From NCBI GenBank assembly GCA_045837725.1, contig JBEWZL010000132.1:62001-126000 (forward strand): DNA of 64,000 nt, read 5' to 3'. The DNA is from Vermamoeba vermiformis. Its lineage: Eukaryota. The position numbers and the translations under genes are program-made. Below the pieces are notes generated by a model. That model searched no databases, was not told the DNA's origin, and saw only the letters and a program-made list of their open reading frames with translations. Of the stretch, positions 9,447-58,027 are shown piece after piece; position 1 is the first letter of the stretch; every line of letters begins with the position of its first letter.

Positions 9447-9716
9447 GACCAGCGTCATTAAAACGCTCAATATTAATTATGTAAGTAAATTAATCGGTTA
9501 ATTCATCTCAAATTAATTTTGTACCGGATCCTTAATTAAGCTCGAACCGGAGATTAAACCGAAATCATCTTGACGTTATAAGACTTAGCAAGCCGATTCA
9601 TAGCTCGGAATTACATTCCAAACGGTAATTCCCTTATTAGGAAGGTAACGCGTGTTCGAGCCACGTTTTGCGTAATTACAGATCTGTTTATGCAATTTTA
9701 GTATTGAACACACTCC

Positions 9717-10813: not shown

Positions 10814-11019
10814 AAGAAATCAAATAAAGTAAATATTACCTATTTAGTTGTAGGGCTTCATCGCTGTTATTATTATCTCCACAAAATCTCGTCCTAGATA
10901 TTAAAATCTATTACAAACTGTTTTTTAAGGGACCCACTGAGAAATTTCCGTGGGACTGCGTTAACTCACGCTCTCGAGACCGAATTTGGTTCATTACATG
11001 ATCATTGTATTATTTAATC

Positions 11020-14000: not shown

Positions 14001-14101
14001 AACAGATCTCCTTGAAGACTCAGTTACTGATCGGATCTGGTATCGGTCTTTTACTCGGACTTGGTGCCGCTTTCTTTGTGCATCGACGCAACGCCAAGTA
14101 A
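11020..14101 (+). CDS. F-box + SPRY-like domain protein with C-terminal TM anchor (paralog B)
   Basis: SLPTEVLTNLLALVP, VGFGIDFKTRAVFWTLNG, INFGASPFLFDI, LLIGSGIGLLLGLGAAFF; collinear with paralog A. Confidence 0.75.
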
Positions 14102-14218: not shown

Positions 14219-17200
14219 CTATTTCTCGACGTACACAATGTCGGTAGCAGAGCGGCCAAAGATCTCAGGGCTGTACATTTCTTCAGCTTTAGCAGGTGGT
14301 ACGATGAACACACCTTCCGTAGTTGCGCGACAGAGGTACTTGTACTGATAGTGACCTTCCCATAATAACGATTGGAAGGCTTCAGCTCGTTCATCGCGCA
14401 AGTTTTGGTGTTCGTACCAGCGATGAGCGTGGTAGACACGTGTCGTGAACGGATTGTAGTTGTTTTGCGCGTTCAAATTGAGCACTGCACGCTGATCTTC
14501 ACCAGTCTCAACACCTAAAATAAGACGTTTTGTTAATACGTGATACTTTAGGATGAATTTGTTGCCTTTTATGGAAATTTCTGACTTACCTTTTAAGGCA
14601 GTGTTGATAATCTCGACACCAGCGGGTAATTTATCAACGAGAGCAATGTGATATCTGCGCGAGGTCGTGGTCATCATGACAGAAACACGCACCTTCTCGC
14701 CCAACTTGAAGTGCCAGTTGCCGTCCTTGTCTTGTGTCACGTGCTTCTTGTCGTCGACACCCTCGTAAGTACGTTCAATCTTGAAGCCGTAGCACGCTGC
14801 TTTCAACTTCAAATCGTCAGGGGCGTAGTTCATCGCGAGACGGTAGTACAATCTACCAGGGCCTTGTTTGGTCAAGATCAAATCAGTGTCGCCAGTCTCG
14901 AACAAGAACTGCATGGGCACGTTGATGATGTTCGTCTCAGTCGTGCGGCCCTTGAAGTTCTGTTCACCGGCAAATAGTTCGCCTAGCCAGACTTGTGCGG
15001 TGAAATTGGGCTCGTCTTTCTCGTAGACTGCAAAGTAGAGATCGAGTGCCACGAGAATCAAGCAGTTTTCTTGCGTGTTGTTCCATTTGCCGGCCTTGCG
15101 GTGGGCAAGCAGACCCTTGGCGAGCTTGGGAATGAGTCCGTTCTTTTGGTCCACGGTCAACAGCGCCTCGAGCAGGACACCATCGACTCTGCGGTCAGAG
15201 TGCAACATGACGTATTGGCCCTCTTGGTCTGAGTACTTGGTGATAAAGTTAGCAGTCTCAGCAGTCTCGTTGACTCTGTTCTGAATGAACTTGAGAATCG
15301 ATGCGATGGCGTCAGTAGTCTTCTTCGATTTGTCAGTGTGCATGGCAACCATCAACCAGCCCAACGAATCTAAGTTCACGCCTTCATTGCCTTGTTTTTC
15401 GTAGATCTTACGAGCTTCTTCAGCCACCTAAAGAACGAACAAATTGTGAGCTACGTTGTTTTTTAAAATAAATCAAACTTACGTTGTCACCGAGCTTTTG
15501 TCTGACGTAGAGGCAGTAAGCCAACAACGAGTACTTGGAGTGCTTGCTCATCCACCAGAAGTGCAAGTCCAAAAACATCTCGAGTGATTTCAAGAACTTG
15601 TGAGCACGCGAGAGAAGAGTCTTGTCGACAGTAACGCCTAATAAAATGCAATTAAGTAAAGATTTTTTCACGGAAAAATGACACGTGTCAACAAGTGTCA
15701 AATTAAACAACTTGAGCTACTTAAAGTACCTTTTTGTTGAGCCTTTGCCAAGCAGTGAGTGACGTGCACGGAAATAAAAGGATCAGGACAGCGCCAGTAA
15801 TCCGCAGTTTTCTTCCAGAAGTAAAATCCTCCCGTGAAGTGCGGCTTGAAGTCATGATCTTCTTGTCGCTTCAACAAGGTCTTGAGCTGCTCTTGGAGGG
15901 CCAACAAGATTGCCATGTTGGACGGCAAGTCTGGAACATTGAACGCTTGCAAGACGTCCTTCAACGAAACAATGCCGAGAATTCTCGAAGCCAGTTGTTC
16001 TGAGCAGTCAAACTCGTACTTCCACAAGTAGAGCACGGCGTCAGTGAGTGACTGCAACACGGTGGAACTCGTTTGCACTTCAAAGCCACCAAACTCTTTG
16101 TACACGTTCTTCGGGGTCTTGACGGGCTGGAAGACGACGGTCTTATCGCTAATGTCGCCGTAAGCTAAGTGATACAACGTTAGTAATGAAGTACAAATGA
16201 GGCTAAGTCACGTACTCGCAAAGGCCTCAGAAGTGGCAGGGGTCCAGACTGGCAATGAAATTTCAGCAGCGTCAGAGAAGTCCTCGCTAGACGCGACAAT
16301 TTGGAATCTAGCCGTGCCCGCGTACTTAGTCTCAACAGGCAAGAAGATAGCCACTCGCTTGGCAGCGCCAATCTTCATTCTGCGCAACACTCGTTAAGAC
16401 TTTTCCTGTAAAAGACGCTTAACTGCACGTACCTGTAACCACCGGTGAAGTTGCCTCTGAATCGTGCATTGGTGCAACGAGCGGCCACGCGCACAACGAG
16501 GTCTTGGTCAGTTTGATTTTGCAAGACCACGCTGCACTCGGCTTTGTCGCCCAAATTAAGGAATCGAGGGAACGATGGACGGACCATAAAAGGCAATTTA
16601 GCAACGACAGATGCATCGCCCAAGCCAAACTTGCGGTCAGTGACTGCCACAGCCCAGACACGGTACTTGGTCAATGAGTCCGGCAGTTTGAACTCGACGG
16701 AGACGTTGCCGTTCTTGTCGGTCACCACTGAAGGTGTGAAGTTTGCAATTGCAGTGAAATTGCTGCGCACTTCGATGGGCGTCGAGGCCTCTTCGACAGG
16801 TGCAGACAACGACCCGCTCAACATGTCCATTGAGGGAGCCATATCTTTTTTCCGTGCGTTAGCCATTGGAGCCATTGGAGGAGCTAAGCTCTGTTGCATC
16901 TGTGCCATCATTGGAGCAGGAGCAGCGGATTTAGCGGGCATTGCCGACGCCATTCGCATCATTGGACGTGGAGGAGCACCACCAGGGGCAGGGGGACCTC
17001 CTCCTCCCATTCCAGACGAAGAATCGCTAGCAACAGGCAATTCTGGCTCTGGAGGCTTTGGTGCGTTTTCTGCAAACTTTTGCAAGTCCTCAGAGCTACA
17101 ACCACCATGAATAATCAATGTATGAAAGAATTCTAATAGCTACGTACCTAATAAGCAAGACGGCGCTTCTCAAGTAAGAAAAGCCGGTGCCTGTTTGTCG

Positions 17201-20200
17201 GTGAGGATTGAACAAGGACAGAGGATTGCTCAACGAATAGCCAGTCAATGCCAAGACACTCTCGTCGACCACAATCACGCAAACTTCAGCGTTTTCCTGC
17301 GGCTCGTTCTTGGCATTAGCTACGTGCACGTTGACCACGGCTTGTGAGCCAGGCTTGTACGATGCTTGGCTGGTCGTAACATCGACCTTCAACTCGTCAG
17401 ACTTGTTGACAATGTTGATGTTGGCGAGGCCTTTAGCGAAGCAGGGGCGCGGAGGAGCGGTCAAATCTAGCACACCCGAGTTCAAGGCACGAGGCTTGCA
17501 ACCCATGAGATCGACTTGAATCTGCACGTTAGGCTGCCAGTCTTCTTTGATCGGGAACTTGACTGTCACAGAGTCCTCGACAAGTTTGAAGCGTTCAGTG
17601 TGCACGACACCTTCACACAACAGCGTTAACAAGCCTTCAGCGGGCTTGAACGGAGATTGAACGAGCAACTCTCCCGTAGTCTCTCCATCGAATGGCGAGT
17701 ATGTCTGTTTGTCGGGGATGATGATAGCCTCTTCTTGGGTCACTTTAGTGATCTTAGGCGTTGGCGTAGCCTTTGCACCAGACACGTTGAAGGTGACCTT
17801 GGTCTCATTGCGCAGCTCTATTGTTATGATTAGAATCAAGTCCGATAGTCACGTGCAGTGTCTCTTACTTCGACCGTCAGCTGTGATGAATTCAAAAGTA
17901 TACTGGCCTCCGTCTTTAGGGAAGTACTCGTAGACAAGTGGTTCGCTCTTCGAGACCAACTTGACGATCTTGCTGCTGCTCTTTTCAACTTCGCGAGTCA
18001 AACCTTGTTCGTCTGAAAACACTTGTTAATCACCATTTCTTGATAGTCCTTTGCACTTACCCTTCTCGTCTTGAACCCACTTGCGAGTCTGTTTGATCCA
18101 GAAAGGCACGCCTTCCTTAGCCTTGCCATCGATGTCGGTGACAATAACGTCCATAGGGAACAGATCGTGAGGCTTGCCGTAGGCTCGCTTGACATTGACA
18201 CCAAGGTAGTACTCCGAAGGGTGTAACAGGAAGCTGTGAGACCGTTAGAAAATTGAATTGCAGGTCAATGTCGTAATACCTTGTCGAAGTTTCACGGGTT
18301 TGGTAGTTAAGATCGGTGATGGCAGCAATAGCTTTCAGGGTCTTGGGTGCCTTCAAATTACCCGCGTAAACGATCTTCACTTCGTGTTCACCGTTCACAT
18401 CGGTCTTGCCATTCAATTCATTGCCTTCTTCGTCGGACTCTTCGTCGGATTCTTCGTGATCAAGGAGTGACGGGCGCAATAGAGGTCCACCTTTAATCAT
18501 CGGACGAGGAGGTGGAGGAAGTCCAAAGCTTGGTGTGACTGATCGAATACCAAATATTTGGCCACGAATGTCATCAAAAGTGAATGGTGTGAAGGTTGGA
18601 CGATCCATCCACCAGGGCTTGACGTCACCAAAAGAGAACTTGGACCAACCAGGCGGCGAGTAGAAAGCGTCGCTGTCTTGCAAAGTCCACTTGACCTTGG
18701 CGTCAGACAATCCTCCACCTGCAAAGTAGGTCGCCTTGGCCTTGGCAACAGCAAATCCTCCTTCCTTGCTTGCAATGTGATTGGAGATTGGAACGTAGCT
18801 CGAGCTCACTTCGTACTCGGGTCTGCGGAACTCTTCGACTTTGAACGTGTGGGTGTATGTAATAGAAGTGCCCACGGTAGTAAAAATCACTGACGCAGTG
18901 CCCAAGTTCATGTTGTCAGGCAAATTCAACTTGAGGTCAAAGGCACCAAACTTGTTGAATTCGAGATCTCCCTTGGAGATTTCCGCGCCACGTGGATCAC
19001 GGAAGACGTACGTCATCTTGCCGCTGCCATAGGTAGGCATGATTTTTCTTGTTTCGGATCGTTTCAAGTGTCGCAAGTAGCCCTTGATGTGAACCTCTTC
19101 TTTGGGTCTGTACAACTTTCTGTCATCAAACACGAACCAGTTGTTGCTCTCAAAGCCAGTCTTTGTGTAGTTAACGGGAGTAAATGCCACGTCATTGCCC
19201 TTCGAGCACATGACAATGCCCTTCGCTGCGCCATTGAACTTGGGGAACAAGATGATACCATCGTCATTTGTCTTGCCTGTAAACCGACGTTAAATCACGT
19301 GTCAAAAAAAGCCACTAGCTCGTACCTGAGCAATTGTTTGGAGCGCTAATTTGCACACCACTGGCAGGCTTGCCGTCTTCCAGCATCGAGGCCCACACGA
19401 GCAACTCTCCGCTGCCCTGTGAGAAGATAGTGTCCACGCACATGCGCGTAGATTGTATCCACGAGTACAACTTGGGGTGGTAGTCTTCGTACTTGTCATA
19501 GTAGCTGCTGTGGAAAACTCGCCAAGCGGCCTCAGTAGGCTCCACTCTGACAATCAACTGACCCAAGTTTTCATTAGGGAACTGCAAGTGAGGTCTCAAG
19601 TCAATCATCAATTGCTTGGGGACACCTGGTTCAACGTCTGTCTTGATAATGGTCTCGTGGACAACCTTTCCAAATTTGGAAACATGCGGACGGCGATTGT
19701 TGAACTCCGCAGTGGCAGAGAAGTACTCGGTGGGAGCGACTTGGTACACTTTGACGTGAAGCTCGTGATAGCCGACAACAATTGGGGTCAAAGTCGGGTG
19801 AGTCTTAGGATCAAGCACGACCAAGTTGGACGGGCCAGCTAATTACAAACCGTTAGACATTGCACGAAAATATAGGAGATTGATTTAGACTTACTAAGTG
19901 AGTCGTAACCGGGGCCAACCTTCACGTCGTACGTGTTAGCACCAGTCAGCTTTTGCTCGTAGACGTCGCACAAGGCACGATCAATGGTGACTGTGTACTT
20001 CTTGCTCGGGTCACTATCATTCTCGATAACGAGACACGATTGTTGTCTCATGAGGCCATAAGAACTGCCAAAGATCCCGACACTAGCAGTGTTAGCGGAG
20101 TTATTTTCAATTCTGAAAACAGCTTTCTTCAACGGAGGTGTGATCTTGACCATGCTCTCTTTGAAAGTGCCCATATCAATTGGATTCGTGAAGTAAATGT

Positions 20201-22467
20201 GCCAAGTAGCACGAGGATGGTAAGACGAAGGTCTGTAGGGCTGGTCAACACTAAACAATGCCATGGATTAGTAAGGCTGAAACAAAGTTGAATTATTAGT
20301 ACGTACCCGAACGGAGGATAAGTGGAGAATGAAGCACTTTGGACGGTGGTAGATTTCAACGGGCCTTCTAAGGACGGGACTGACGGACCAACATTGATGT
20401 TGTAAGTCGTGTTAGGCTTCAAATCTGTCTTGAATCTGAAGCCGAAGAACGTCGAGGCATTGATCTCGTTAGTGTCGTATCTGCGCGCAGCCAATGCGGC
20501 AAGTGTTTCTTCGGTGGAAAGCAATTGCAACTCCGGGGCGTTAGAAACCCTAGAGCTTGTTAGCGCGTTGAAATAAATCAAAATGAAAGACGTACTTGAC
20601 GACTTTGATAACCTCAGCCGGATTGATCCGTTGATCGAATCTCAAGACGATTGTCGGGCCCAAGCAATCGAGTCGCTGGCTGTAGCTGCTTGGAGAATGC
20701 GTCCACATGTTGTCAGAGAAGTTCGAGATGTAATGCACGTTCTTCAAAATCGGTGTGTTGGTGGAAAACTTCATGACAAAGTCTTTGGCCAGAACACCGT
20801 TCACCATCGACTTGGTGCCAGCAGGGATCTTAATGGAATAATCCGTGGAGAACGGGAATCGGCCCTCAGCCTCGAACTGCAATATAGTAGTGCCCTTCCA
20901 GACCCAACGACCGGCAATACCTTGAGGCTCCAATGTAGCAGGCACGGGGACTGAGGTAAGTTAGAACTAGATAGAATAGCTTATGCTGCACTTACTCTCT
21001 TTCAAGTCAGCGATGCTAGCAACAGGAACCATAGGCTGGTTGAATGTGATTGAAGCCACAGGCACGGGAACATTGAGAGATCCCTTCGGCGAGTGTCGTA
21101 AGATTTGAAGCTCGCCACCAGTCTCTTCTTTGTTGAGCTTCTTCGCCTCTTCCACGTCGATCACAACCTCGGGGCGAACTAGCACGTGTCAATATAATTC
21201 GTGAATAAGACTCTGTTGTCACGTACCTTCAGGTGGAGGAGGGAACGGTTGGTTGATTCGCTCGCCTGTCTTAGGAGCCTTCAACGAAGTTTCTATTGTC
21301 GGGTTAGTTTTCTAAAGTTCAGTCTTGTGGTAATGAAGACGCACCTCTCACAGCGAAGTTCTTCTCGTCACCCTCTGCGCTTTGAATAGGAGCAGCACGG
21401 TTCAATAACTTCTCCAAGGACTCTGCGTTAAGAGGTTCCATCGGCTCGACAGGTTGGTCAGTCTCGGGCTGCTCTTGTGCGTCTTGATCTTCCTCGGCAT
21501 CTGCCTCAATGTTCGCTGCCTCGACAGCGTCAATCTTTGTCAACTTGGTAGTGAAGGGCACGAGCTCAGTATCTAGCTTAAAAGTGAGTCCGAGTGGCGA
21601 ATGCATCACGTGAGTTGACGTTACCTGGCAAGTCATCAGGCTCTTCAGCACTAGAATCTTCGTCTTCCTCATCGATGCGAGGTGACTTAGCCTCGTCCTC
21701 GACAATGGCATAAGGAGACTTGGTGACATCTGCACAAAGTGTCAATCAATGTCACATCTGTCAGTTTACCTACCCTTGGTATTCCAGTTTGCCGATACTT
21801 TTAAGTTCTGCTTTTCTTGAATAGTATTATTTTTGTTTTCGTTCTCTTCCGTAGGCTTTATTTGACCTTCGCCGTACTGGATTTTGAGTTGGAGCGAACC
21901 TTGAACTGAATCTTTCTTGTTTGGGCGAGAAGATAACGGAAACCAGTCTTCAATTGGCGATTTGCTAAGCAAATCTTTGTTGATTTTAATTGTAACTTGA
22001 CCCTGGAAACGGTCAGATTCGAGAATCCGCAACGAGATCATAATATCTTACCAAAAACTTGTCAGCAAGCACTTTCTGCTTATGCCACAAGCTAATCTGG
22101 ACACCAGAAAAATCCGACGCATCACTAAAACGATTCAGTAAGCACCAAAAATTGAAATCGATTTTTCATGACGCTTACAAGCTTAGTTTTTCGTTCCAAC
22201 TCGGTGTTTGCGTCTTCTTAACAGGCTCTAAAAATTATACAATGGTTAATCAAAAAAATCTATTGCTGCTAAAGGAGTTTTACTTGTCGTGCTTGGCTTG
22301 CCGATCGCCTTGCCGCCAGCATCGAGCACTGCAACTACGACGTAGGCATCGTATTTGGACTTAAGATCCTTTCCAGCGACCGCTAAATTAAGAATGAGTC
22401 TCTTCTTCGGGATGTGGTAAATATCTTACGCACCTGTTACTTGGAGTTGCGTAGCTCCTTTCTCCAT
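14219..22467 (-). CDS. Bacterial-type alpha-2-macroglobulin with N-terminal C2 domain, multi-exon
   Basis: C2 motifs (PSWNE, ADKFLGQV, WFPL, GSLQLKIQY); Ig-like ITFNQPMV; MG2 FDDRKLYRPKEEVHIKGY; VEEFRRPEYEV; VVDESVLALTGY; VRSNF..LPDSLTKYRV; PRFLNLGD; thioester CSEQ (15995-16006); WNNTQEN; PPAKAEEMYSPEIFGRS. Confidence 0.9.
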
Positions 22468-43950: not shown

Positions 43951-46900
43951 TTATTTATATCTTGTTTTAGCCAATATTTCTCGGTCTATCGTTTTCTTCA
44001 GCTCGTCGAAGAAAGTCTTGCATCTGTATCTGTAGATTTTGCGGAAGAATTTTATCTGGGTATGTATTAGTTTAGTACTTAGTTCTATTAAATTTTCTTC
44101 ATCTTCTATAAATTGTTTGAGGTAATTATACGTGTATTTTGGAAGGAAACCGGAAACTCCGGCAATATTATTTATTTCTTCTTTTTCAAATTCTGCCGCG
44201 TCTCTAAAGTTTCTATTCTTTATTCTATACCATCTGCATGGGTCTCCTGGGGGTATTTTATATTTTTCGAGGATGCCGTCTATTTCGTGGTCGAGCTTTC
44301 TTCTAATTGGTTCGTACTCTCTGCACGCTGCGATTATATGTTTGGTATCTTCTGGTTTTTTGCAATGTACGCATTGGTTATTCGTGTATATTGTTTTGAG
44401 TCGGAGATTCTCTCGGTCTGTCCCTTCTTTCCTGATCTTGCGCATCATCTCTACCTTGCCGTTCAGTTGTTTATTCCTTAGTTTGAAAATGAAGTTTACA
44501 TCGTTGTTGGTAAAGTCCTTGTTATGCAGGTAGCTGGTTTTATGCGCTGCTGCTCGGAGTTTTCTGACGTCTTTAAGTTTAACAGTCTCGTGGTGTCTTC
44601 GTTGTTCTTCTAGTTTGATTAGGTTGCTTAGTTTATCCGTTTGTATTGTGTCATCAATTGTAAATATGTATTTTCTGGCGAGTCTTGGCACTACACCAAT
44701 TCTCATTAATTTGAGGCTTTGTTTGGCTAGTTGATCTGCCGCTTCGTTGCCTACGATTATTCTCGAGTAGTTGTCTCCGTATTTATCTTGTAGGGTCTTG
44801 AGTTTTTCTTTGAGTTCTTTTAGCTTTTTGGGGTCTTTTTGTAGTTTATTCATTTTATCGCCGATATGGCTAGGTACGTGTTCGTAGCTTACTCTAATTT
44901 TCTTTTCCGCGATCGTTGCCTTTATCCTGTTGATTACAGCTTCGTATTTTGGTGGTGGTCTTTTCTTTTTATTCGTTAGTACGTGTATCGCGCTCGTGCA
45001 ATCTGTAAAGATTCTGAGGTCTTGGCGTTGATGTGTGTTGATAGCATATTCTATAGCTTCTAGTTCCGACTCGAACGAGTCTTGTATATCGTTGGTTCTG
45101 CGGGCTGTGTTGAGTTTTGAGTTGCGCGTAAAGAAAACACCGAATCCCGCTTTATTTTGTTCTTTGTCCCATGAGCCATCTGTCCATACCCACGTCTCTC
45201 CATCAATCGTTATAAGGTCTTCTTCAGTGGTTTCGGCGTTTATTCTGGTTCTGCTGCGCTCCTCGGCTAGTTCTTTGTCAATGATTTCGTTCTTGATTTG
45301 GCCGTTATCTGTGATTATTCTCCTGACTGCTAGGTATTCTTTATTCGTTAATGGGCTACTGCTGGTTAGGTTTAGATGGAAGCGCGATTTAATTAGTTTG
45401 GTTTGAGTGGAAATATCTCTGGTGTATTTGATATTCATGTTTCGTAGTTTATCTCGCAGCGGTAACGAGTTAATACTTTGTAATAAGGGGCTGCCGTTTT
45501 CATTGATAGTGATTCCGACCTTAAATCGGTGGCAGCATTTAATTGCATTTATTATAATGTTGTCGTTGGGGTTAATGTTTTGTATTTTGGTTTTCGGTGA
45601 CTCTAGTTTATTGATGTTATCGATATCAACTGCCTTCATTCTGTATTCCAGGATGTCGGATAATATATCATTTCTGTTGAGACCTCTTTCGAATATGAAG
45701 TCTGCGAATGTTCTGTAGTTGAGGTCTTCTACGTTGGGGACGTTCAATCCACCTTCGTCTCTACTTATTGAGAATTGTGCATTGTTGAGGTTTTGTCGTA
45801 TCGGAATCGACCTCTTGAGGCACGTGAATATGCTATCTGATATTTTGTTGAGCGTTTTAGTTGGAAATATTATGTTATGAAATGGGTATTGTATTATTGG
45901 CAGTATTACTCGTGTTATCAGTTCGGCTTTGCAGTTCACCGATAGGTTTTTTGTTCGAATTATGGCTAGTTTATTTAAGAATTTCTTTTGGAAGTGCTCA
46001 AAGGTTTGCGTTAGGTCACCTTCGATATTCATAGGTATGCCGAGGTATTTGTAGTTCTCGTTCGCTTTCAGTGTTTTGATGTTTTTATTGTAGAATTTAA
46101 TCTCTTTTCCTGTCGTTTCATTCGCTGTGAAGGCTGACTTATCGTGGTTAACGAGTATGTTGTAGTACGTCGAGAATTTTTCCAGATCCGCACTCATTTC
46201 TGTTAGCTCTTTGAATGATTGTGCAATTAGTGCAATGTCGTCGGCGTATGCGAGGGTGGGTATTCGTATTGGTTTTTCAACATTGAGTACGTATCCGTCG
46301 TACTTGTTTTCGATATGTTTTAGAATTGGATTAATAAATATTATGAATAGTAGTGGTGAGAGTCCGTCTCCTTGTTTTACTCCTTTTTTGATATCGATCG
46401 GTGCAGACAGCTCTCCGTTTACAATTACCGCTGCGGTATTATCAGTGTACATGTTAATTATTAATTCGATAAAGTTATGGTCCACTTTATAGTATTCCAT
46501 AACCTGTTTAAGTCCCCAATGTTCTACGCTGTCGTAGGCTTTACTAAAATCGATATATTCTAGGTGTAGCTTTTTGGTTGTTTTATTGTCTTCGATGATA
46601 TTTTGTAGTATTGAAATTTGTCTTGCCGTGCTCATATTGCTTCGAAACCCTGCTTGGAATTGCGAAAGTAATTTATTTGTTTCGAAGTACTCTTCGAGGC
46701 GGTCTTTTATAATACTGCTGAAGATTTTATATTCTACCTGGAGTAGGCTAATCGGTCTGTAGTTGCCCGGGTCTCCTTGGTCGCCTCCTTTGTGGATTAA
46801 TGAGATCAGCGATTCTTTCCATTTGGTTGGGATCTGTTTTTGTATTAATATAGCGTTGAATATCTTTTTGTACTCTTTCAGTACGTCTTTTGAGCAGTGT

Positions 46901-48041
46901 TTAAGTATGTCGATCGGTATTTTATCGCTACCTGGTGTTTTATGGTTTGCCATTTTAGCGATTGTCTCTCGAATTTCTCGCAGTGATATCTTACGCATTA
47001 GGTCAAGGTTATATTCGATGTGAATGTCTTTTTCGAGCCATACAGGAGTATCGGTTCTTGGGGGGGTAGACGACGTGAGTGTTGCTTCCCAAAATGAGCG
47101 CACTTGGTTGCGGATGCCTTCTTTGTCTGTTATTGTTACGTTGTTTTGTTTGATGAATGGGATTGTCTTGTTGCTTGTTAGAGTTTCGAAGATTAGTCCG
47201 ATATATGTTTTGAAATTTGTGTCTCGTAGGCTAAGTCGTCGTTCAACTCTTGAATTGATATCATTTGTTTTCATTTGTTTTATCCTCTTATTATATTTTT
47301 TAACCTCTTCGCGTTTTCTTTCTTTGATTTCCTCTGCAGACGCATTCGTGTTGATGTTGCATTTCCCGAGTATCTTTTTTAGTTTCTTTTCTCTCGATGG
47401 CGATGCTAGCATATATATTTTGTGTTTAAGTCGGAGAGCTTTCAGTATTTGATGTATATTTCGTTTGATGTTGTTTAGTTCTGCATCTTGTTTGTACGGT
47501 TCTCGTTTGTTGTTAGATTTGAACTTTTGGAATATTAATTCGTGCCATTCGTTAAGTTTTTCGTTTATTCTGGACATTGGTTCGGTGCCTGTCAAGTGGA
47601 ATCCGCTGCTTTCGTAGAGGGTTTGTAGCTTATTTGGCGTTGATTTTTTATCAAGGTTGTGGGTATCGATTTTTTCTCTCAGTTCTTGGCTTGTCGCGCT
47701 ATCTTTGACTGTTGTAAAGCTGTATTCGAGTATGATTGCGCGGTGATCGGAATGTATTCTGTCTTGTTTCCATATATCGCAGTTGATAATACGTCCTTTT
47801 TTGTTGGTAATGAAATAGTCTATCCTGGATCGTGTTCGATAGATCTCTGGTGACGTTTCGTCTTTGTTTTCTCTTTCGAACGTGAATCCTTTCCGTAATG
47901 GGTAACAATATCGGAAGCAATCGGCGAGAGCGCGTATATCAAAGTTGTTCGTTACCGTTTCGCAGTGGTTTGCATGTTTAGAGGTTTTATTGAATTTCGG
48001 ATCTGATTTTTTAAGGCGGATATTTAGGTCGCCTCCTATTA
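43951..48041 (-). CDS. Retrotransposon polyprotein, 3' part: C-half of APE endonuclease, RT, RNase H, CCHC
   Basis: GGDLN, SRIDY, SDH; KTPGSD, YRPISLL, DFSKAYDSV, GVKQGDGLSP, YADD (46237-46248), YKYLG; TDGS/ELEA/FTDC/HVPSH/GNEAADQLAK; CVHC..H..C; frame open from 48041 to stop. Confidence 0.95.
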
Positions 48042-48117
48042 GGGACGAACTTTTAATGGTTTGAAAAATATCCCATGTTCAAGATGTAAGGTGTACACCT
48101 TACACTACCAAAATAAA
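48042..48117 (+). repeat. Left TIR of MULE-like element
   Basis: GGGACGAACTTTTAATGGTTTGAAAAATATCCC...TGTAAGGTGTACACCTTACAC matches the reverse complement of 54440-54517. Confidence 0.88.
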
Positions 48118-48124
48118 GTATCAT

Positions 48125-50783
48125 TTATTTCAATTGATTTTTTTGATTTCGCTTTGCCACTTGATATACAATCTTTTTCACATATCCCTTGGTATATTTT
48201 TCATCAAAAATGTAATGTTGCAACCAGTACAACAATCCTTGGGATATTCCTTGTCTTTCCTCAGACAGTTTCTTTAAGCCTTCAATACACAGCAGCACAT
48301 CTTCTTCTTTCACCTTTGGGTAGTTTGCCTTGCGGGAGGTAAAATGGGAAAGCTTTAAGTCTTGGAATGTCTTAAATGTTAGCAACTGGGCAAGAGATGT
48401 TCTGGAGTTTAACTGAAAGGGGGTGGTCAATTTCAGGGACAGAAGCAGTTGAAGTTTCAGGTGAGAGTGCTGTTCTGCTTGATTACGCATTTCATTGCTA
48501 TTCAATGGAATTAGAATTGTAACAATGTGATTGGTAGGTACCTGTAGTTATAAAGGAATTGCAAATGGGTTACAACAGCAACCAGAAGTTCAAAAGAGCA
48601 AGAACCACTGTAAAAGGGAGATGATTTCTTCAAGTATTTGTGCCAGTTTTCATTAACTGAAGTGCCCTTTGAATATTCTTTCAATGAAGCTGAATTGAGT
48701 ACAGCATCAAGGTAGCCCGCAGTAGGGTTTAAAAAGTTATTCACTGCCCCAAGTACTTTGGAGGTAATTATTGAAGGATAATTAGCAGCTGTTATAGTGT
48801 CTGAACCACTATTGCAATGTTAGTGTATAGTGTACACCTTACATATTTGACTAACCTTAAAGTGGCTGCTAGATTCTCAATAAATAATTGCATCTGTTCA
48901 TCTCTATCTTGGTGAGCTTTACTGTATTTCTCAAGCCAGACATTCAGCATAGTAGATAACTTTGCACTGTTTGGGTCAGCTGAATTACAGAGCTGTGCGA
49001 AAATGCCACTGAGTTCTTGCTTTGCTGAATAATAGTCTGTACATATTAGATAACATAGTAAGAATTGTATAAGCATACCAGGATGATTGTGTGCCATTAC
49101 GGAGTCAATTCGATGTATTACATGCCAAATATCTTGACAGGTCTTTGGCATAGTTTTGGCAGAGAAAGAGTTTAACCAAGCTGCTTTAACAAAGTTTTGA
49201 TCTGTTGATATCAAAATTTAGGTAAAGTATTAATTTATGAAATGTTCATACCTTTTCTGCTGTCATCAGTAAACACATGTGTGGTTGTGGGTTTGCTGTG
49301 GAGACTCCAAATATCATCAAACTCGTCTTCCATATATTTGCGCTCATCTGATGGAACTAATTTGCACACAAGCACTTGTCCTCTTTCATTGAGAATCGAA
49401 AGCAAAGAAGCCTTAATCTGTATCTGGAGTATAGGTTACACCATACACCGCGGAATTTCTTTAATGAACCTACTCTTTTTTTGTTCATTGTATCCATTGC
49501 TGAGAGAGCTGATGCAATCTTGTATGTATGATCAACTCGGAGCACTGTACCACTCTTTGCAATGATTTCATTATTGTAGTGATTGAAAAACTCTTTTTGC
49601 TTGCTGTACTTGAAAAGGTACAGAGCCTCCAGCATTTGACTATTGATAATGTACTTCTGTTCCAAAGCATCGACAATCACATCCACATCAGTTTCAGCAA
49701 AGACCTGTGTCAGAAACCCCTGCAATTCATTTAAATATTATTAGTGTATAGTGTACACCCTACGCTACATCTCGTTCTGGTACTGTTTCTTACCATTCGT
49801 ATCTTGTGAGACAGGTTTGATATCCAAGTGCCTACAATAGTCTTTGCCAATGCAGAGAAGTTAAAGGAGTGGGATGGAATTGTCATAAAGATATAATCCA
49901 GAAATTTGGTAGTAACAATTGTTCTTTCAAAAGACACCACTTGCGGAGTAATGCTATAGTCTTTGAGATCTGACTGAAGTAAAGAAAATATAATGTAGCT
50001 GTGTGTGCTGCATTGATACTTTTGGAAAGCCAATATAAAAGGACTTTCAGTATCAAAGCACCTTTCTCTGGTATCTTTTCCATAAAGCACAATATGACAT
50101 ACGTCTTTACCCTGAATAAAGTTAGAATTGAAAGTAATATGTTTCATTAGTACCTTATGGGATGGGCATTTGGTAGGCAAGTAGGTCAGCATATTGACTG
50201 GTTGATTTGCCCTCCACAGTTTCAGGTGCTCAACAGGCAAAACCGACTCCACCGTTGCTGCAAAGTGCGAAGAAGATGTAGCATAATGTTTTTCAGGGTA
50301 TTCGGCACTGTTGTGGATAGAGAGCTCTGCCAATTGTGAAACAACGTCTTCGGTGTAAGGAGTACCCTCTACATCATCGGCCGATTCTACATTTTTCTTA
50401 ATTTTTGGGGCTTTTAACTGTTTCTTGACTGGACTAATGACAATGTTGTGTGTTTTAAGCTTCTTCTTTTGTGCTCGCTCTGCTAAGAATGTTTGGTCCT
50501 GCTGCAGAGTTCTGCGTTGTGGCAGTGGATTCACATCTGAGTAAATTGTAAAACCATAATATTATTAGCAAAACAAATACATACCTTGTAAATGCATTTT
50601 AGTGGCTTGATGCTGCAGCAATTCTTTTTTGGAATTTTTTTGGATGTTGCAGATGCATCCTGTTCGGTAATTCCAAAGTCGGCAAACATAGGTTTTCCGA
50701 TGGTTGCCAGATTTACCAAGCACAATATATTGGTAGCTGGTGTACCCCGGTTCCTTGTTTTGTTCGACAATAAGTTGTTCCAT
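48125..50783 (-). CDS. MULE-like DDE transposase, multi-exon, N-terminal zinc-finger-like segment
   Basis: LRVDHTYKIA (D1), VFTDD (D2), QDIWHVIHRI (DxxH), GTSVNENWH (E); the exon joins I checked are in frame via GT-AG introns. Confidence 0.8.
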
Positions 50784-50814
50784 CTGATTTTATCGTTTTT
50801 ACACGAGCACAACA

Positions 50815-53800
50815 ATGCAAACGCGACTGCGTGCAAGAGCAACAAACCAAAACAAAAACAATAACAATAATTCCCTTTCCAAAAAAAGGGCACGAGACGA
50901 GAGTGAGATTGAGCAGATCGAGATCGCTAGCGAACAAGCCACTAGCAACAAACGGCAGAAAACAACAAAATCAAGTAAGTAATAATTTTGGTTGTAATTT
51001 TTTAATGCGGGTTTAAATAACGGTTTATTTTTTTGATTTTTCTCCCGCGCAAATTAATTTCTTTTTGTTGATTAAAAAACGGTCTGATCCAGAACACAGC
51101 AAGCACAGCAAACAGTGCTTCCCAAGTGGCTGAACGCGCTCCCCAAAACCCCGATATTGCAGGCGAACCCGGTAAGTGTAAATCTGATCACGTTAATTTT
51201 TAATACCCGAATCTAGGCAACACAGCTAACTCAACGCGCACCAACACTACAAATAGGGGTGCACAAGAACGCGAACGCGTTCCCCACGACCGCGATACTG
51301 CTGGCGAACCCGGTAAGTGTAAATCTGATCAGATTGAATTTTTTCTAACCGAATCTGGTCAACACAGCTAACTCAACGCGCAGTGACACTACGAATAGTG
51401 TTACACAACACCGCGAACGCGTTCCTGAAGACAGTGCTGGTGCAGGCGAACCCGGTAAGAGTAAATCTGATCAACTTAATTTTTATTGACTGAATCTGGT
51501 CAATACAGCTAACTTAACGCACAGCAACACTACAAATAGTGCTGCACAAGACCGCGAACACGTTCTGGAAGACCGCGATAGTGCTGGCGAACCCGGTAAG
51601 TGTAAATCTGATCGGATTGAATTTTTTCTAAGCGAATCTGGTCAACACAGCTTACTTAACGCGCACCAACAGTACAAATAGGGGTGCACAAGAACGCGAA
51701 CGCGTTCCCCACGACCGCGATACTGCTGGCGAACCCGGTAAGTGTAAATCTGATCAGATTGAGTTTTTCCTGACCTGAATCCAGCAACCACCACTGGTGT
51801 AAACACTGCTGCTGCTGGTATTATCGCCGCCAGCGAGTATACGCATGGGAGCAATGCTAGCCAGTGCATAAATCAGCCAGGTAAGACGTTTTTTTACTGT
51901 TTAAAAGTTCGTAGCTGATGTCACTAACCGATCGCGAATCCAGTTTCGACCGAACCAATGCCCACAAATGGTAGCAGTAGTCTATCAGATACTAATACGC
52001 GTGCTCCCGACAATTGCTATGGTGGTAGCGAAGCAGGTAAGTGTAAATCTGATCAACCTAATTTTTAATTAACCGAATCTGGTCAACACAGCTAACTCTA
52101 CGCCCAGTAACAGTACGAACACTGTTGTACAACAACGCGAACGCATTCCCGAAGACCGTGATAGTGCTGGCAAAGCAGGTAAGTCTAAATCTGATCAGCT
52201 TAATTTTTTGTAACCTGAATCTAGGCAACACTACCAATTCAATGTCCTCAAACATTGCGAATAGTGTTGCACAAGGCCGCGAACGCATTGCTGAAGACCG
52301 CGACATTGCTGGCAAAGCAGGTAAGTGCAAATCAGATCAGCTTAATTTTTTCTAACCTGAATCTAGGCAACACTGCCAACCCAATGCCCCCAAACACTAC
52401 GAATAGTGTTGTGCAAGACCGCGAACGCGTTCCTGAAGACCGCGATGGTGCTGGCACACCAGGTAAGCCAAAAGTTACTTGTAAAATACTTTGATCTAAC
52501 GTCAAATCCAGGCACAGCTGACACCAGTGCTTCCCAAGTGCACGAACTCATCCCCAATGCCCGCAATAATGATGCTATTGACAATGAACAAGCTCGTGAC
52601 ATTAGACAGCCCACTAGTAAGCCCAATGAGCAAGGTAAGTTGAACTGCCGATCTATGGACAACTTTTGAAATGTATCATTGACAATTATACGATTACAGT
52701 TAATACCGCGGCAGTACAGAACAACACCAACGAGCACACAGATCGTCAACAGGGGGTAGCAATAGCAGGTAAGTTTTTGTGTAAGGTGTACACTGTACAC
52801 CAATGCTGATTGGCTTGCAGGGGCAGCACCGGACTCTCTTGCTGCAAACTACAGTGACAGACCACGTAGAAACCGAACACTTAGACGTGGTGTGTGAAGG
52901 CAAAAACGTTGTATTACAGGATACTAATTCTTTTTCCCTGTTACATAGCTGTAGACACTGCTAGTGACGAGTCCTCAGAATCCAGCTCTAACAGCAATGT
53001 ACAGCAGGTAATTGAAGTTGGCGAAGATAATGAACAAGGGGACTTGCTAAAAGGTAATTCGTATCGGTAACCGGTGTACTCCTTACACCCTTTTATTTAG
53101 TTGTTGGGCAAACAAAAGAAAGCAGCGCAGATCAGTATGCTGCTGTTGATAATATTGTTGCTGTAAACAAAAACGATATTGTGGCAGTGTTGGGAGAAGA
53201 CAACGAAATTTGGTTTGCGAAAGTTGTCAAAGCCCCAAGAGCCAAGAACAACTTGGCAAAACTTACTGTTTCTTGGTATCAGTGTGAAGCACGGACGAGT
53301 TCGAACGCACTGTTAATCTCTCCAGAACAAAACCAGTCCAGCATAGAATTGGGGGCTATTTTGGATAAAGTTGCTTTCACAAAAATGCCTGGCAAGCAAC
53401 TTTGCATTGACAATTCAGAGTATCAGCGTGTTCAAGTTATTGGTACGTAATCAATTCCCTTCTAGCACTTGACCAATTACTGACCTTAATCTCAATACAG
53501 CAACAAAAATTACTGAGCAGCCAGACTCATCTGCAAAAACAAAACAAAGCCCGAAAAAGACTTCGAAAAAGAACAAGAACAAGGCAAAAAAGAAGAAGAG
53601 CAAAAAGAAAAACGCAAAAACATCCGCTGCATCGTAAGTGTACAGTGTACCCTTTACACCAATGTGTAACTTACTTTACACAGAGCTGCAATTGTTGAAG
53701 AAGATAGTGAGCCTGGCGCCAACATGCAAAACAACGCCAATGTTTCTAAAGTGCCACAAACTGCAGATGTTGATATGGGTGAGGTTGGTCCTGATGATGC

Positions 53801-54412
53801 TTCTGTTTCTTTTAGTTCTGCTGAGGAGGATGCCAAACACCAGTTTATGCACGAAACTGACGTTACTGTGGCATCGATTTATGATGTTAATGCTGATTCT
53901 TGTAAGTTTCTCTTCATATTTTTATGGATCTAATCTTTTTTTTGTTGTAGGGGATGTTAAGCTCGCCAAGTTTTCAAAATGGCTTTTGCAATATGGTATA
54001 TTCAACAAAGATTATATGGACAATGGCAAAACGTCTGGTGGCTCAACAGCACTGCACTTATATTTTTTTTACCGTATGTACAGTGTACACCGCACACAAC
54101 TGTCACTCACTACTTTTAGTGTTATCTGCCTTCAGGGACCACGTACTTCCCACTCCTGCTGAAAAGCGTGCTACTTTGCTTTCTGCAGGTATTACAGAAG
54201 ACAATCATAAGCACTACACTCTACTGTGCCACGACATGACACTTGAAGGAAATCCTCTGGTGCACCGCCCCACTGCCTTTACAAAGAAGACTATTACTTC
54301 TGTTCATCGCTGGTTAGTGCAGTACTCATTGATCAGAATTTCTCATGAGCCTGGTGCCAAAAGAAATAGGGTGTTTGTATGTATACCACCTTTGCGTCCG
54401 ATTTGGCAATAA
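50815..54412 (+). CDS. Transposon accessory protein: NLS, tandem 32-aa repeats, BAH-like domain, Lys-rich tract, C-terminal globular domain
   Basis: MQTRLRAR..KKRARD..KRQK first exon; NDIVAVLGEDNEIWFAKVVK..LTVSWY; KKNKNKAKKKKSKKK; final exon ends CIPPLRPIWQ* just before the TIR. Confidence 0.7.
51093..52510 (+). repeat. Tandem array of about 10 x 142-bp exon+intron units
   Basis: GTAAG(TGTAAATCTGATC)-type donors at 51172, 51313, 51455, 51596, 51738, 51881, 52037, 52179, 52321 and 52463. Confidence 0.9.
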
Positions 54413-54439
54413 AACCTGTTTTACGTTTATTTGGTGCAA

Positions 54440-54515
54440 ATTTTTTATTGTTGGTGTCAGGTGTACACTGTACACCACGAAAACGGGATATTTCTCAAAT
54501 CGTTAAAAGTTCCCC
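54440..54515 (-). repeat. Right TIR of MULE-like element
   Basis: Reverse complement reads GGGGAACTTTTAACGATTTGAGAAATATCCC...TGTACAGTGTACACCTGACACC. Confidence 0.88.
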
Positions 54516-57500
54516 CCTCCTATTATTATATGAGAGTTTGTATTTCTGTCGATAATTTTATCGATCTTTTTAAGAAAGCGTTCGTAGAATGCTTTCTTTT
54601 CGGTTTTATTTGACGTTGCCGGACCGTAAACATTTACTATTGCAAGCGTCTCTTTATTTACTTCAATGATCAAGATTATGAAACGCTTGTATTTATCTTT
54701 GATGATCTCTTTAATAAATGGTTTCCATTTTACATTGAAAGCAATTGCGATCCCGTGTTTACCATTTTTTGGCGGGTTGATCCAGTTGATGCGGTCTTCT
54801 TTCTCGGTTTCGTTTATGGTAGTATCATTCATAATCTTTTTTATTAGTTTTTCTTTTCTCTCTTGGACGATGTCTTTCGTAGTGCGATTGTTCCACTCAA
54901 TTGCAACTTCATTGTGTATTTGTTTTCTACACAGGTAGTCTTCGGCAGTAATTTTCGTTTCTTGAATGAGATAAAAATCAATTTCATTGTTCCTTATAGC
55001 TTCGACGATATCTTGTAGTTTGTCTTCGGCACCTCCGTTGATATTTTTCGAAATTAGTCTAATATTATGTTTATGATCTTCAGGGAAATACCACGCATCT
55101 TCTTTTTCGTCCTTATCATCGTAGTCATGCGGTAGCAGTTCAATTTCGCTGTCATTTTCCGGATGTGACCATTGGATCTGAAACTTAAACGGGCTTTTTT
55201 CTTCCATAATTCTGCCTTCGTAGTATTGATCACTGAATTTTATTTTCACTTGTTTACCAAGCCATGTTTTTGTGTCGGGATTGGGATAGGATATTTGCGG
55301 ATCGCCTCCGATTAAGCCAATCTCGGCTTTTAAACAGACTTGGTTGTTAGTGATATCTATGGTGCTATTCATATTAGTTATCATCTTACCATCTTTGAAT
55401 AATTTAATGCATTCCGGTGGTAAGTTAATTCTTTTTGAGCATTCATTACAGATCTCCTGTATCGCGATCTTTGTGTAATGCGTTTTAATATTAATCTCCT
55501 CGTTGTCAAGTGCTACTTTAATATTATTTCCAATTTTTTCGCTACTTTGTTTAGGGTTCTCGGCGCGTTGGGGCTTTGTCTGCTGGTTTCGAGATGGATC
55601 TTTAAGTTTTGGTCGTAATTTTGGTTTTATTTGTGAGTGGTATATTGTCGGTATTATAATAGTGTTTTTCGATAGTGTTATAAGTATATATAATACCTTT
55701 AGACTCAGTCGTCTATAATTTTTTTTGGATCGTGGTTTAACAATTGTGATAATTAATATGCAATTTATTTCGTTTATAAATGTTATTATTAAAGTGATAC
55801 ATGCGGTGAATAAGATTATAATTATTAATATTTTAAGTGTCGAGGTGTGTTCGTTTTCATTTTCTCTTCTCGGCGATCTTTCGTGCAATCTAAATAGTTC
55901 TATAATTAGCGTACACACTATTACTATTTGGTATGTCTTATTTACCGATTCAGCGTATTCTCTTGGTGTGAAAATATCGAAAATGTGGCCACGGGTGAAT
56001 CCGATCTTTCTGTGGAAACGTTTGATTGTCGCGACGTCCATCTCACTGTCACAGTGTACTTGTACGTACTCTCCTTTGCGTAGGCCGTCCGATTTTGGTA
56101 TATATACTCGTACTACTTGCGTTTTTGTCTTCGAGATTTGGCCTTCTAAGAATATTTTCAATTTGCTTGCTTTGATGTTGTATGCTAATTTTGGTGGAAT
56201 TGGGCCCATCCATAACGTTAGATTTTTGGGATGACTGATCTCGAGTGAGTATTTTGTGCCGTTGATGATGATCGATGTACCGTTGGTTGGTATTATCTTA
56301 TCAAGTTGTTGTTCGTCTGCATCGAACACAATTAAGCACTTCTCTCTTGTAGCGTTGAAATCGTCGAGAAACCATTTGAAATACGGTTTGGTGGGGAGCT
56401 TAGTTTGAACTTGTTGCTGTACTTCGTTTCTATGTCCTAATGGTACTGATATAATAATCGCTGCTCGATCAAGGACTATCGCTTCTCCTCTTGGTGGTTC
56501 TGTGATAATTGTATGTCCAATCGGGATAAGAGATCTGATCTCAGTTCTCGCTTGTTCGGAGAAGGCACACCAGTAGGTAGTTTTGATATTGTTCATAAGG
56601 ACTGTGACGCTGCGACTTATGTCGATTTTGTTTTCGATGTTGCGGATTCTTGAGTTGATCGTGGTTAGTTGGGACTGTGAGATTTGTTGAGCTCCGATCC
56701 AGAAATCATTGTCATCATCTCCGATTGAGAGGAAGTCAAGTAATGTTTGTTCTTCCATGTCGATGTCGTTATCGTTCGTTGTTTTTTCGGTTATTCCATT
56801 CGTGTTGTTTTCTAGTTGGGATCCGTTGTTGGGCAGATGCGTAGTTAAAGGAGGCTTAGTAGTGTTATTGTTGTTGTTGATAACTTCTTGGTTGGTTTGT
56901 TCAGTATATTGTGCGTTGTGTTCTTTTGGTTCGTTGCTTGTTACTTCGATCTCTTGATCGGGTGCATCGAGTGTCTGGATGACGTTGTTGTTGTTGTTTG
57001 GAGCTCCTATGTTGTTTTCATGGTCATTATAGAAGTTCATTATTTCTGAAACGATATTGGTTGTCTCTTCGACTGATGCGTCTTCGATCTCATCGTGGAT
57101 GTTTCCTCCTTCCGTTGATGGTGTTGTGAATTGGTTTACGTTGAGCGCTGCTTTAAACCGTTTATTGGGAGATGAGCAATTTGAGCTCGGGTTGCTTCTT
57201 TTGCTCATTAGTACAGTTTGAGAATAAATTAGATTTAAGATCAGCTTACTATTTATATTTTTTTGTTCACCTCTCTTGTGATTAGTTATATCGCCTATGA
57301 GCTTTATTTCTGTGTTTCTTTCTTTTTGTGATGTTGTGTTGGTGTAAGTTTCGATCGATGTTTCAGGATGTGTTCGTGTTCGGGCCGTTTGTGCTTCTAG
57401 AAGGTTTTCCGTTTGTGTTAAGCTGATACGATGGCTTAGTAGTGATCCATTTATTATCGTAGGGGTGATTATAAGACATATTTTGGGTGTAATTTTGGGA

Positions 57501-57820
57501 TCGGGTTCAGATGAGATTGGTTCAGGAAATTTTTGTTTATTTATGTTTAGAGTAATATACATTAGCAGAATAATTAAGAGTGTTTTTAAATTGTATATCG
57601 TGTTTTTCCAGTTCTTTAGGCAGTTTGAAACTGCGGGGCCAATGTTTTTTAGAGTGCTTTGGCGTGCACGGTTATGTTTATATTTGAGTCTTACTTGTAA
57701 TAGTTTTTTGCGTGGAATTTGTGTTTTCGGAATGTTATTTTTTTGGATTTGTTTCGGATTTTGTGGGCTAGTATCATGTGTGGATAATAGGTCTATTAAC
57801 AATATAAATATAGCAAGCAT
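54516..57820 (-). CDS. Retrotransposon polyprotein, 5' part: hydrophobic leader, RRM-like, TM segments, ubiquitin-like, Tudor-like, N-half of APE
   Basis: First in-frame ATG at 57820, 52 nt from the element 5' end; stop-free to IIIGG; SKNING, LIQETK, GIAI and IVNVYGP APE motifs. Confidence 0.85.
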
Positions 57821-58027
57821 TTTTGTTTGTCGTATATTCTCTCCTCTCGTCTCTCTCCTATGCCGGTCATCCGGGGAATTAAAGTTTACTGGGCAGCGCA
57901 GCTTTTGTGTTTGATTCTCCGAAGGATTTTCTCGGAGAAAAAAAGAAATCTCCCGTGGAGGATCTCGCTCGAAAACTATCACTACAAATTTTGATTTACA
58001 CAAATAGAGCATCTGTGTATATCAAGA

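Follow-up and report, generated by a model that had tools for sequence, protein, structure and literature searches.

We analyzed a 64,000-nucleotide stretch of the Vermamoeba vermiformis genome (positions 62,001 to 126,000 of the forward strand of contig JBEWZL010000132.1, GenBank assembly GCA_045837725.1; hereafter the window, to which all coordinates refer), which is eukaryotic DNA with short GT-AG introns, and focused on a transposon delimited by terminal inverted repeats (TIRs). The element carries two divergently oriented genes, a putative transposase gene and a second gene, referred to below as the accessory gene, the predicted product of which contains a beta domain with a weakly BAH-like modeled fold and a basic C-terminal module. 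A 17-bp palindrome recurs near both ends of the element and in the introns of both genes (Table 1).

The element, its insertion site and its two genes

The left TIR and the reverse complement of the right TIR are identical at 28 of the 33 positions, and the element is bordered on either side by the same 10-mer, the right-hand copy of which overlaps the last two bases given to the TIR. Because these bases are ambiguous at the right TIR edge, the target-site duplication (TSD) can be read as 8-10 bp. In-silico deletion of 48042-54525, that is, the element together with one copy of the duplication, yields ...NSHIIIGGDLNIRLKK... within a single frame of 2528 codons that is open throughout and in which the peptide NSHIIIGG is joined to DLNIRLKK. 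This frame belongs to a long interspersed nuclear element (LINE) that served as the insertion target and is part of the context rather than of the transposon; its halves occupy 43951-48041 and 54526-58021 on the minus strand, and the insertion point falls in its N-terminal part, within a ...IIGGD... motif. The insertion is clean and probably recent, and the LINE itself was likely young and intact when hit, since a single open frame is recovered once the transposon is deleted.

The element is compact and of the cut-and-paste type, with coding sequence accounting for 75% of its length. The start codons of the two genes are only 31 bp apart (spacer 50784-50814), so that the promoter and 5' untranslated region of each gene must overlap the first exon of its partner, and at the opposite ends, near the TIRs, AATAAA is found at or just past the stop codon of both genes. 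Within the 64-kb window, the accessory gene was found in a single copy, and neither Rfam families nor tRNAs were detected.

The model of the putative transposase has a Cys/His-rich N-terminus. No match was obtained for six open reading frame (ORF) pieces of this gene against Pfam at E≤1 or for four pieces against NCBIfam, and two pieces retrieved no real match among PDB sequences, where stretches of caspase and pyruvate formate-lyase were regarded as chance similarities; when the exon-5 ORF was compared with longer proteins, none of the 86 candidates scored. The absence of a match to the MULE/MuDR transposase profile (Pfam PF10551 and related accessions) is a weak negative, because small exons divide the core and the pieces searched were unspliced. 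By eye, VDHTYK, FTDD, C-x4-WH and NENWH.YLKK resemble the motifs D, D, C..H and E of the transposases of Mutator-like elements (MULEs). Among MULEs, reported TSDs range from 8 to 11 bp and reported TIRs from 14 to 500 bp (PMC6446971). The element under study, with TIRs of 33 bp and a TSD of 8-10 bp, falls within both ranges and lacks a transposase profile match. An earlier note on this DNA had called the element a MULE; the repeat lengths agree with that label, the transposase pieces match no Pfam, NCBIfam, PDB or longer protein, and we treat "Mutator-like", which draws on the repeat lengths and the motifs noted by eye, as a lead.

The accessory gene was modeled by a memoised splice search from the ATG at 50815, in which every strong GTAAG-type donor was obligatory; a previous model was dropped, as it left two introns with strong donors unspliced. 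The resulting model ends with a stop codon at 54410-54412 and has introns of 45-125 nt, all 19 of which are bounded by GT and AG. According to this predicted exon model, 50815-54412 is an intact, spliced second gene of the TIR element and no stray ORF. Its product would be a modular protein of 843 amino acids (aa) that is of low complexity outside the beta domain and the C-terminal module: a compact composition, with more than one-third hydrophobic residues, is confined to the beta-domain exon and the C-terminal module, and the remainder is 2-25% hydrophobic. Several short linker exons connect the parts listed in Table 1. The features that the earlier note had described by inspection are all recovered in this model, namely, an intact spliced gene located between the TIRs, basic motifs resembling a nuclear localization signal (NLS; in exon 1, KKR starting from aa 23 and KRQK from aa 46, in addition to the Lys-rich exon), a poly-Lys tract, a repeat linker (two arrays of a 142-bp unit, 51132-51781 and 52031-52467), the beta domain discussed below, and a C-terminal segment, WLVQYSLIRISH..RVFV, which lies where it had been placed, in the last exon (54120-54412).

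Table 1. Coordinates of the element, its genes and palindromes, and its insertion target in the window
Feature	Coordinates	Strand	Details
Whole TIR element	48042..54517		6476 bp, of which 4878 are coding, 1379 intronic and 219 other
Left TIR	48042-48074	+	33 bp
Right TIR	54485-54517	-	33 bp
Left TSD copy	48032-48041		CCTCCTATTA
Right TSD copy	54516-54525		Identical 10-mer, CCTCCTATTA
Interrupted LINE (insertion target)	43951..58021	-	RVT_1 and RNase_H domains
Putative transposase gene	48125..50783	-	7 exons separated by 6 introns (44-74 nt); product of 781 aa
Accessory gene (predicted model)	50815..54412	+	20 exons, 19 introns, 843 aa
Exon 1, basic N-terminus	50815..50974	+	KKR...KRQK resembling a bipartite NLS; isoelectric point (pI) 10.6
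Repeat-region exons	51100..52462	+	Ten exons, phase 1; 8/10 are copies of the 142-bp unit
Exon of the BAH-like beta domain	53101..53442	+	342 nt; ordered part ~aa 500-589
Lys-rich exon	53501..53633	+	17 K/R per 44 aa; pI 10.7
Acidic linker exon	53684..53901	+	pI 4.1
C-terminal module	53951..54412	+	Last two exons, 53951-54073 and 54120-54412; 137 aa; pI 9.7
Left subterminal palindrome	48083..48106		8 bp inside left TIR; 3' untranslated region of the transposase gene
Palindrome	48822..48838		Transposase intron 48809-48855
Palindrome	49743..49759		Transposase intron 49720-49793
Palindrome, perfect	52785..52801		GGTGTACACTGTACACC; accessory-gene intron 52769-52820
Palindrome, degenerate	53073..53089		Intron 53054-53100, directly upstream of the BAH-like exon
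Palindrome	53637..53660		Accessory-gene intron 53634-53683
Palindrome	54075..54091		Accessory-gene intron 54074-54119
Right subterminal palindrome, perfect	54460..54476		8 bp inside right TIR; past the accessory-gene stop, in the 3' untranslated region

The beta domain and the C-terminal module

The stretch in which the earlier note had recognized a BAH-like beta domain (53165-53440) is contained in a single exon, 53101-53442. We searched the 114 aa encoded by this exon exhaustively with HMMER among 1.84 billion representative proteins (E≤1e-3) and obtained nine matches, comprising the ORF itself, seven relatives, and one protein of 5242 aa that was discounted for having no aligned stretch. 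The seven relatives are ORF-sized pieces of 89-203 aa (all true matches together span 87-203 aa) that are annotated at most as "hypothetical protein" and share 34-49% identity with the query (E values from 2e-22 to 6.6e-08); because seven independent relatives match, the exon is certainly coding. A profile search of a 90%-clustered collection returned seven proteins from 4579 candidates and added two relatives to the set. The ten sequences then available are 35-82% identical in pairwise comparisons, so that several lineages are represented, and have 16 invariant columns. In six of the eight aligned relatives, similarity stops at the same I-G, which is the position of the splice donor in the window, so the exon boundary is apparently conserved as well. 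Furthermore, identical relatives occur on multiple contigs, P0005 on 6 and P0010 on 7, as expected for a repeated element. Judging from these comparisons of sequence, the beta domain is a real, constrained and very rare family.

In relatives P0010 and P0014, the ORF continues past the end of the domain exon into a Lys-rich stretch (...KVKQTIEKAKRVQKRK), and a basic tract behind the domain may thus have been retained by one or more of the diverged relatives. When bacterial and archaeal genomes were scanned with P0005, the sole match comprised 27 residues with 52% identity (L001, positions 2831-2911, a contig of Xanthobacter sp.) and was taken to be due to chance.

The structure prediction that the earlier note had proposed as a check yields a confident model of the beta domain when the ten-sequence alignment is supplied, with a predicted local distance difference test (pLDDT) score of 84.6 and a predicted template modeling score of 0.73; the single sequence folds with a pLDDT of 37. 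The model consists of seven strands and a C-terminal helix. In a Foldseek comparison with the PDB, the best-scoring matches are BAH domains (probability 0.98-1.00), with BAH1 of DNMT1 at the top (7lmm_B; E 0.033, template modeling [TM] score 0.51), accompanied by BAH domains of EBS, SHL, ZMET2, BAHCC1, AIPP3 (TM 0.53), polybromo and ORC1. These matches span E values of 0.033-0.16, query-normalized TM scores of 0.42-0.53, 78-111 aligned columns and root-mean-square deviations (rmsd) of 3.4-7.8 Å. Besides the likeness in predicted fold to the BAH domains of DNMT1, EBS/SHL, ZMET2, BAHCC1, AIPP3 and ORC1, the family pattern G-x5-W-[FY]-A-x-V...V-x-W...A-[LI]-[LIV]-L...I-x-L-G-x-[VI]-L-D-x-V resembles, by eye, the BAH core. 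When the family is set in register, again by eye, with the motif of the BAH aromatic cage, two of the three sites coincide with invariant tryptophans, W38 and W59, and position 39 is F or Y.

The case for a BAH domain has to be set against a number of results pointing the other way. Position 61, the third cage site in the same by-eye register, is Q, A, E, S, K or T and never aromatic, and the matched BAH chains measure 146-204 aa, compared with ~90 aa for the ordered part of the beta domain. The best Foldseek E value against the PDB is 0.033, and no match attains 1e-3; the list also contains, over the same E range, ribosomal beta-barrel proteins (rmsd ~15 Å), and among the viral structures of BFVD, unrelated phage proteins match equally well (best E 4.6e-3). 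The Pfam BAH profile (PF01426) matched none of the 10 members of the family at E≤10, and a PDB profile search with the beta domain found nothing relevant. The exon alone likewise had no match in Pfam, where nine other ORF pieces were equally without a match, or in NCBIfam, and ESM-Atlas placed it among "hypothetical protein" clusters only, with a recognition score of 2050 against a guide value of 2300. Because the E values are weak, other barrels are interleaved with the BAH matches and the profiles are silent, the domain is best described as possibly BAH-like in its modeled fold and not as a demonstrated member of the BAH family. What stands of the earlier assignment is that the top PDB folds are BAH domains; membership in the family finds no counterpart in the profile searches or in the E values of 0.03-0.16. 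The nuclear localization proposed in that note is a prediction from the basic motifs, and the function of a chromatin reader is likewise presumptive.

A homologue search with the last exon of the C-terminal module (96 aa) at near lengths considered one candidate and recovered its own ORF alone, a Pfam search with four exons gave no match, and nothing relevant was found among PDB sequences, a stretch of picornavirus VP3 (E 0.27) being a chance match. ESM-Atlas recognized the last exon as protein-like (score 2815), and the nearest clusters are a "putative DNA-binding protein" (0.91) and RepL/MarR, WHD_HrcA and TrmB (0.89). These language-model features, together with the pI of the module, hint at a winged-helix DNA binder, which had also been suggested by eye in the earlier note, and we regard this as a weak lead: the clusters with scores of 0.89-0.91 speak for it, and against it stand the 134-148 of 256 features that the winged-helix clusters share with the query, below the guide value of 170, as well as the lack of a match in Pfam, the PDB or the homologue search.

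The 17-bp palindrome, the tandem repeats and the rest of the window

With up to three mismatches allowed (≤3), the palindrome GGTGTACACTGTACACC gives 15 matches on both strands of the window, compared with 0.10 expected, a count that none of 100 shuffles reached. All of these matches fall within 48083-54476, inside the element, where they form eight sites, two subterminal and six intronic, the latter divided between the transposase gene (two) and the accessory gene (four). Introns make up 22% of the exon-plus-intron sequence, and the location of all six internal sites in introns would have a probability of ~1e-4 by position, a figure that is partly trivial because of coding constraint. As a single-stranded DNA hairpin, the palindrome is barely better than shuffled sequences (z -1.2 to -2.7). 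A further degenerate intronic copy, the seventh, is visible in the transposase intron 49424-49473. In several of these introns, a few bases at most separate the 5' splice site from the start of the palindrome, the extended form of which, GTAAGGTGTACAC, includes a donor-like GTAAG.

Traces of the palindrome were also sought among the relatives of the beta domain. In relative P0002, which is 46% identical to the domain over its ordered part, the ORF runs through the intron that precedes the domain exon and there encodes GTLYT, a peptide that corresponds to a translated palindrome variant present in the window; in shuffles, such hits arise 0.0115 times for every set of 16 sequences. This single post hoc observation is a hint that the gene and the palindrome travel together.

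These data bear on the origin of the accessory gene. Capture of host sequences is common in Mutator-type elements (PMC6446971), and the gene could be a passenger, that is, a host gene or gene fragment picked up in the manner of Pack-MULEs and without a role for the element. We consider this very unlikely. A full-length relative of host type is missing among the 1.84 billion representatives, the true matches being the ORF pieces described above, some of which are present in identical form on six or seven contigs; the gene is complete, with a start codon, a stop codon and 19 intact introns; four of these introns hold the palindrome of the element itself, and one diverged relative apparently keeps the motif in the matching intron. 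In addition, the codon usage of the non-repeat part of the accessory gene correlates more closely with that of the transposase gene (r 0.76) than with that of the pooled host ORFs (r 0.60), which argues mildly against recent capture from the host.

In the two 142-bp arrays, each unit corresponds in the model to one exon (87-96 nt) and one intron (45-55 nt), and the encoded repeats of 24-32 aa each follow the pattern ...NTTNSV.Q.RERVPEDRD.AGEP in a region poor in hydrophobic residues. The accessory gene appears to have grown here (51100-52462) by duplication of exon plus intron, with every copy in phase 1-1. Each unit also contains two further palindromes, one within its exon portion (GAACGCGTTC) and one where its intron begins (AATCTGATCAGATT).

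It is conceivable that the arrays are a noncoding regulatory or binding-site array instead of exons, in which case the real protein would be shorter or start elsewhere. The coding signal in the repeats is weak, the pooled ratio of nonsynonymous to synonymous change (pN/pS) being 0.77 in the model frame, where the remaining frames give 0.99 and 1.18; several frames are open in the region, on both strands; the repeat exons, being all in phase 1-1, can each be skipped without a frameshift; each unit carries two palindromes; and in VANDAL elements, too, target motifs lie within tandem repeats (PMC5735166). On the other hand, the region has GTAAG at all 10 donors and YAG at the acceptors, identity among the units is higher in the exon parts (77%) than in the intron parts (63%), frame +1 across the repeats is interrupted by stops, and the model offers no in-frame Met usable as a start between the repeats and the BAH-like exon. 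On balance, we find the noncoding alternative distinctly improbable, and the pN/pS ratios together with the exon and intron identities lend slight support to the coding status of the repeat exons.

Elsewhere in the window, an inverted segmental duplication spans 4791-14101, with arms at 6666-6873/12037-12244 (208 nt, 87%), 7745-7911/11043-11209 and 7546-7613/11350-11417, and contains two pairs of paralogous ORFs, 8904-9446 with 10262-10813 and 4791-5423 (minus strand) with 13523-14101 (plus strand); the inner pair (8904-9446 and 10262-10813) had no match in Pfam. The minus strand of 14219-20641 contains long ORFs with alpha-2-macroglobulin domains of bacterial type (bMG10, E 8.6e-32; MG2) in an intron-bearing, eukaryotic context, and the guanine-cytosine fraction of this region is 0.46-0.51 compared with ~0.40 elsewhere. 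Other host ORFs nearby encode a VWA protein and a fibrillarin-like protein.

Possible roles of the accessory protein and known systems

Accessory genes determine the timing and location of DNA transposon movement as well as the means of escape from silencing. We propose that the accessory protein is a noncatalytic factor with which the transposon serves itself. Its basic tracts would direct it to the nucleus and, nonspecifically, onto DNA or nucleosomes, the BAH-like barrel would dock on a nucleosome or a histone tail, and the basic, possibly winged-helix C-terminal module would read the 17-bp palindrome at the ends and in the introns of the element. In this way, the protein would label copies of its element in chromatin, whether to maintain them in an open, expressed state, as in VANC-like anti-silencing, or to help in gathering the ends and choosing the target, as in the case of TnpA or MURB. 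That the protein is a chromatin-tethered factor recognizing its own element, acting in anti-silencing or in end gathering and target choice, we infer with a probability of roughly 45%.

Beyond the objections to the two domain assignments given above, three observations weigh against this proposal. The two TIRs differ at 5 of their 33 positions; the peptide translated from the palindrome occurs in only one of the two relatives that read into the upstream intron, being absent from P0010 and the near-identical P0014; and the Cys/His-rich N-terminus of the transposase could bind the palindrome instead, from which the data do not set apart the accessory protein that the earlier note had named as the best candidate binder. 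Transposases bind subterminal sites in many cut-and-paste elements. The last observation leads to a different division of labor, in which the palindromes are bound by the N-terminal region of the transposase and the accessory protein is a chromatin-targeting or integration cofactor, its BAH-like domain and Lys-rich tract attaching the transposition complex to a particular chromatin state and biasing insertion. This arrangement would build on the BAH-like fold, the best-supported feature of the protein, and it would fit the only insertion seen, which is into another repeat, the LINE, as well as the status of DNA binding by the C-terminal module as a language-model lead and nothing more. The module is nonetheless basic, the feature clusters nearest to it are DNA binders, six intronic palindromes located far from the ends would not be needed for end recognition by a transposase, and a single insertion is uninformative on target preference. 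We consider a cofactor of this kind rather unlikely.

The proposal of self-recognition has its closest parallel in VANC21 and VANC6, anti-silencing factors of the Arabidopsis VANDAL/Hiun elements, which, like the accessory protein, are products of a second, non-transposase gene in a Mutator-type element. The short motif bound by VANC21 is concentrated in noncoding sequence of the element that encodes it, introns of VANC21 and VANB21 among it; VANC proteins combine conserved domains with variable regions of tandem peptide repeats (PMC5735166). Similarly, the eight palindrome sites are concentrated in noncoding parts of the element, with some in introns of the accessory gene, while the predicted protein contains tandem peptide repeats with units of 24-32 aa. 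The two systems differ in that the VANC motifs are 8-9-mers that are dense and in one orientation, whereas the motif described here is a 17-bp palindrome with eight dispersed sites. Moreover, VANC has been reported to be a structural homologue of MAIN (PMC13547354), in contrast to the BAH-like conserved domain of the accessory protein, and because of this the parallel is architectural only. The search with the BAH-like exon among the 1.84 billion proteins revealed no VANC or MURB relative and no aligned match longer than 203 aa. The earlier note had presented the gene as the counterpart of mudrB/VANC, a description that holds at most in the sense of a functional analogue, as VANC is reportedly related in structure to MAIN, which does not have a BAH fold.

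A more specific version of the proposal is that a non-plant element independently built a VANC-like system of self-recognition, in which the BAH-like barrel is combined with a dimeric winged helix that reads the 17-bp palindrome and exerts control over the element's own chromatin or end pairing. Tandem duplication of exon plus intron would then provide a route for the coevolution of the protein with the DNA array. We regard this elaboration as doubtful.

Additional ORFs are known from other elements of the Mutator superfamily, among them mudrB, mutB, vanB and vanC; the function of mudrB of maize MuDR is described as unknown, with an apparent requirement in integration, and mutB of Mutyl from Yarrowia has a DNA-binding role and the same orientation as its transposase (PMC6446971). 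In this, MURB and mutB resemble the accessory gene, and mutB differs from it in being co-oriented with the transposase, whereas the genes in the window diverge from start codons 31 bp apart. The genes of MuDR run inward from the TIRs. TnpA of En/Spm, a CACTA element, is noncatalytic and element-encoded; it recognizes repeated motifs in subterminal position and influences the epigenetic state of its element. CACTA elements generate TSDs of 2-3 bp. A beta-barrel domain has been reported in TnpA of ATENSPM3 and likened to NDX (PMC13547354). TnpA and the accessory protein would be alike in their mode of working only; they differ in that the barrel of TnpA is likened to NDX and not to BAH, and in superfamily, considering the TSD of 2-3 bp for CACTA compared with 8-10 bp here. 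In the accessible part of a survey of chromatin domains captured by transposons, the domains are mostly Chromo and PHD, with BAH mentioned only in host ASH1L proteins (10.1101/2021.11.30.470311), and a full-text literature search found no paper on a BAH-type accessory gene in a DNA transposon.

To our knowledge, very few accessory genes of transposons have been characterized, among them those for MURB, VANB/VANC, TnpA and the Myb-like protein of Harbinger. Should the accessory protein of V. vermiformis read chromatin as well as the palindrome of its own element, it would represent a second, independently evolved sequence-specific system acting on the copies of a transposon. Such a proposal would be readily testable, since the parts are small and well delimited: the site measures 17 bp, the domain ~90 aa and the module 137 aa. 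Even if the gene were a mere passenger, it would still provide a conserved domain family that is very rare and confidently modeled.

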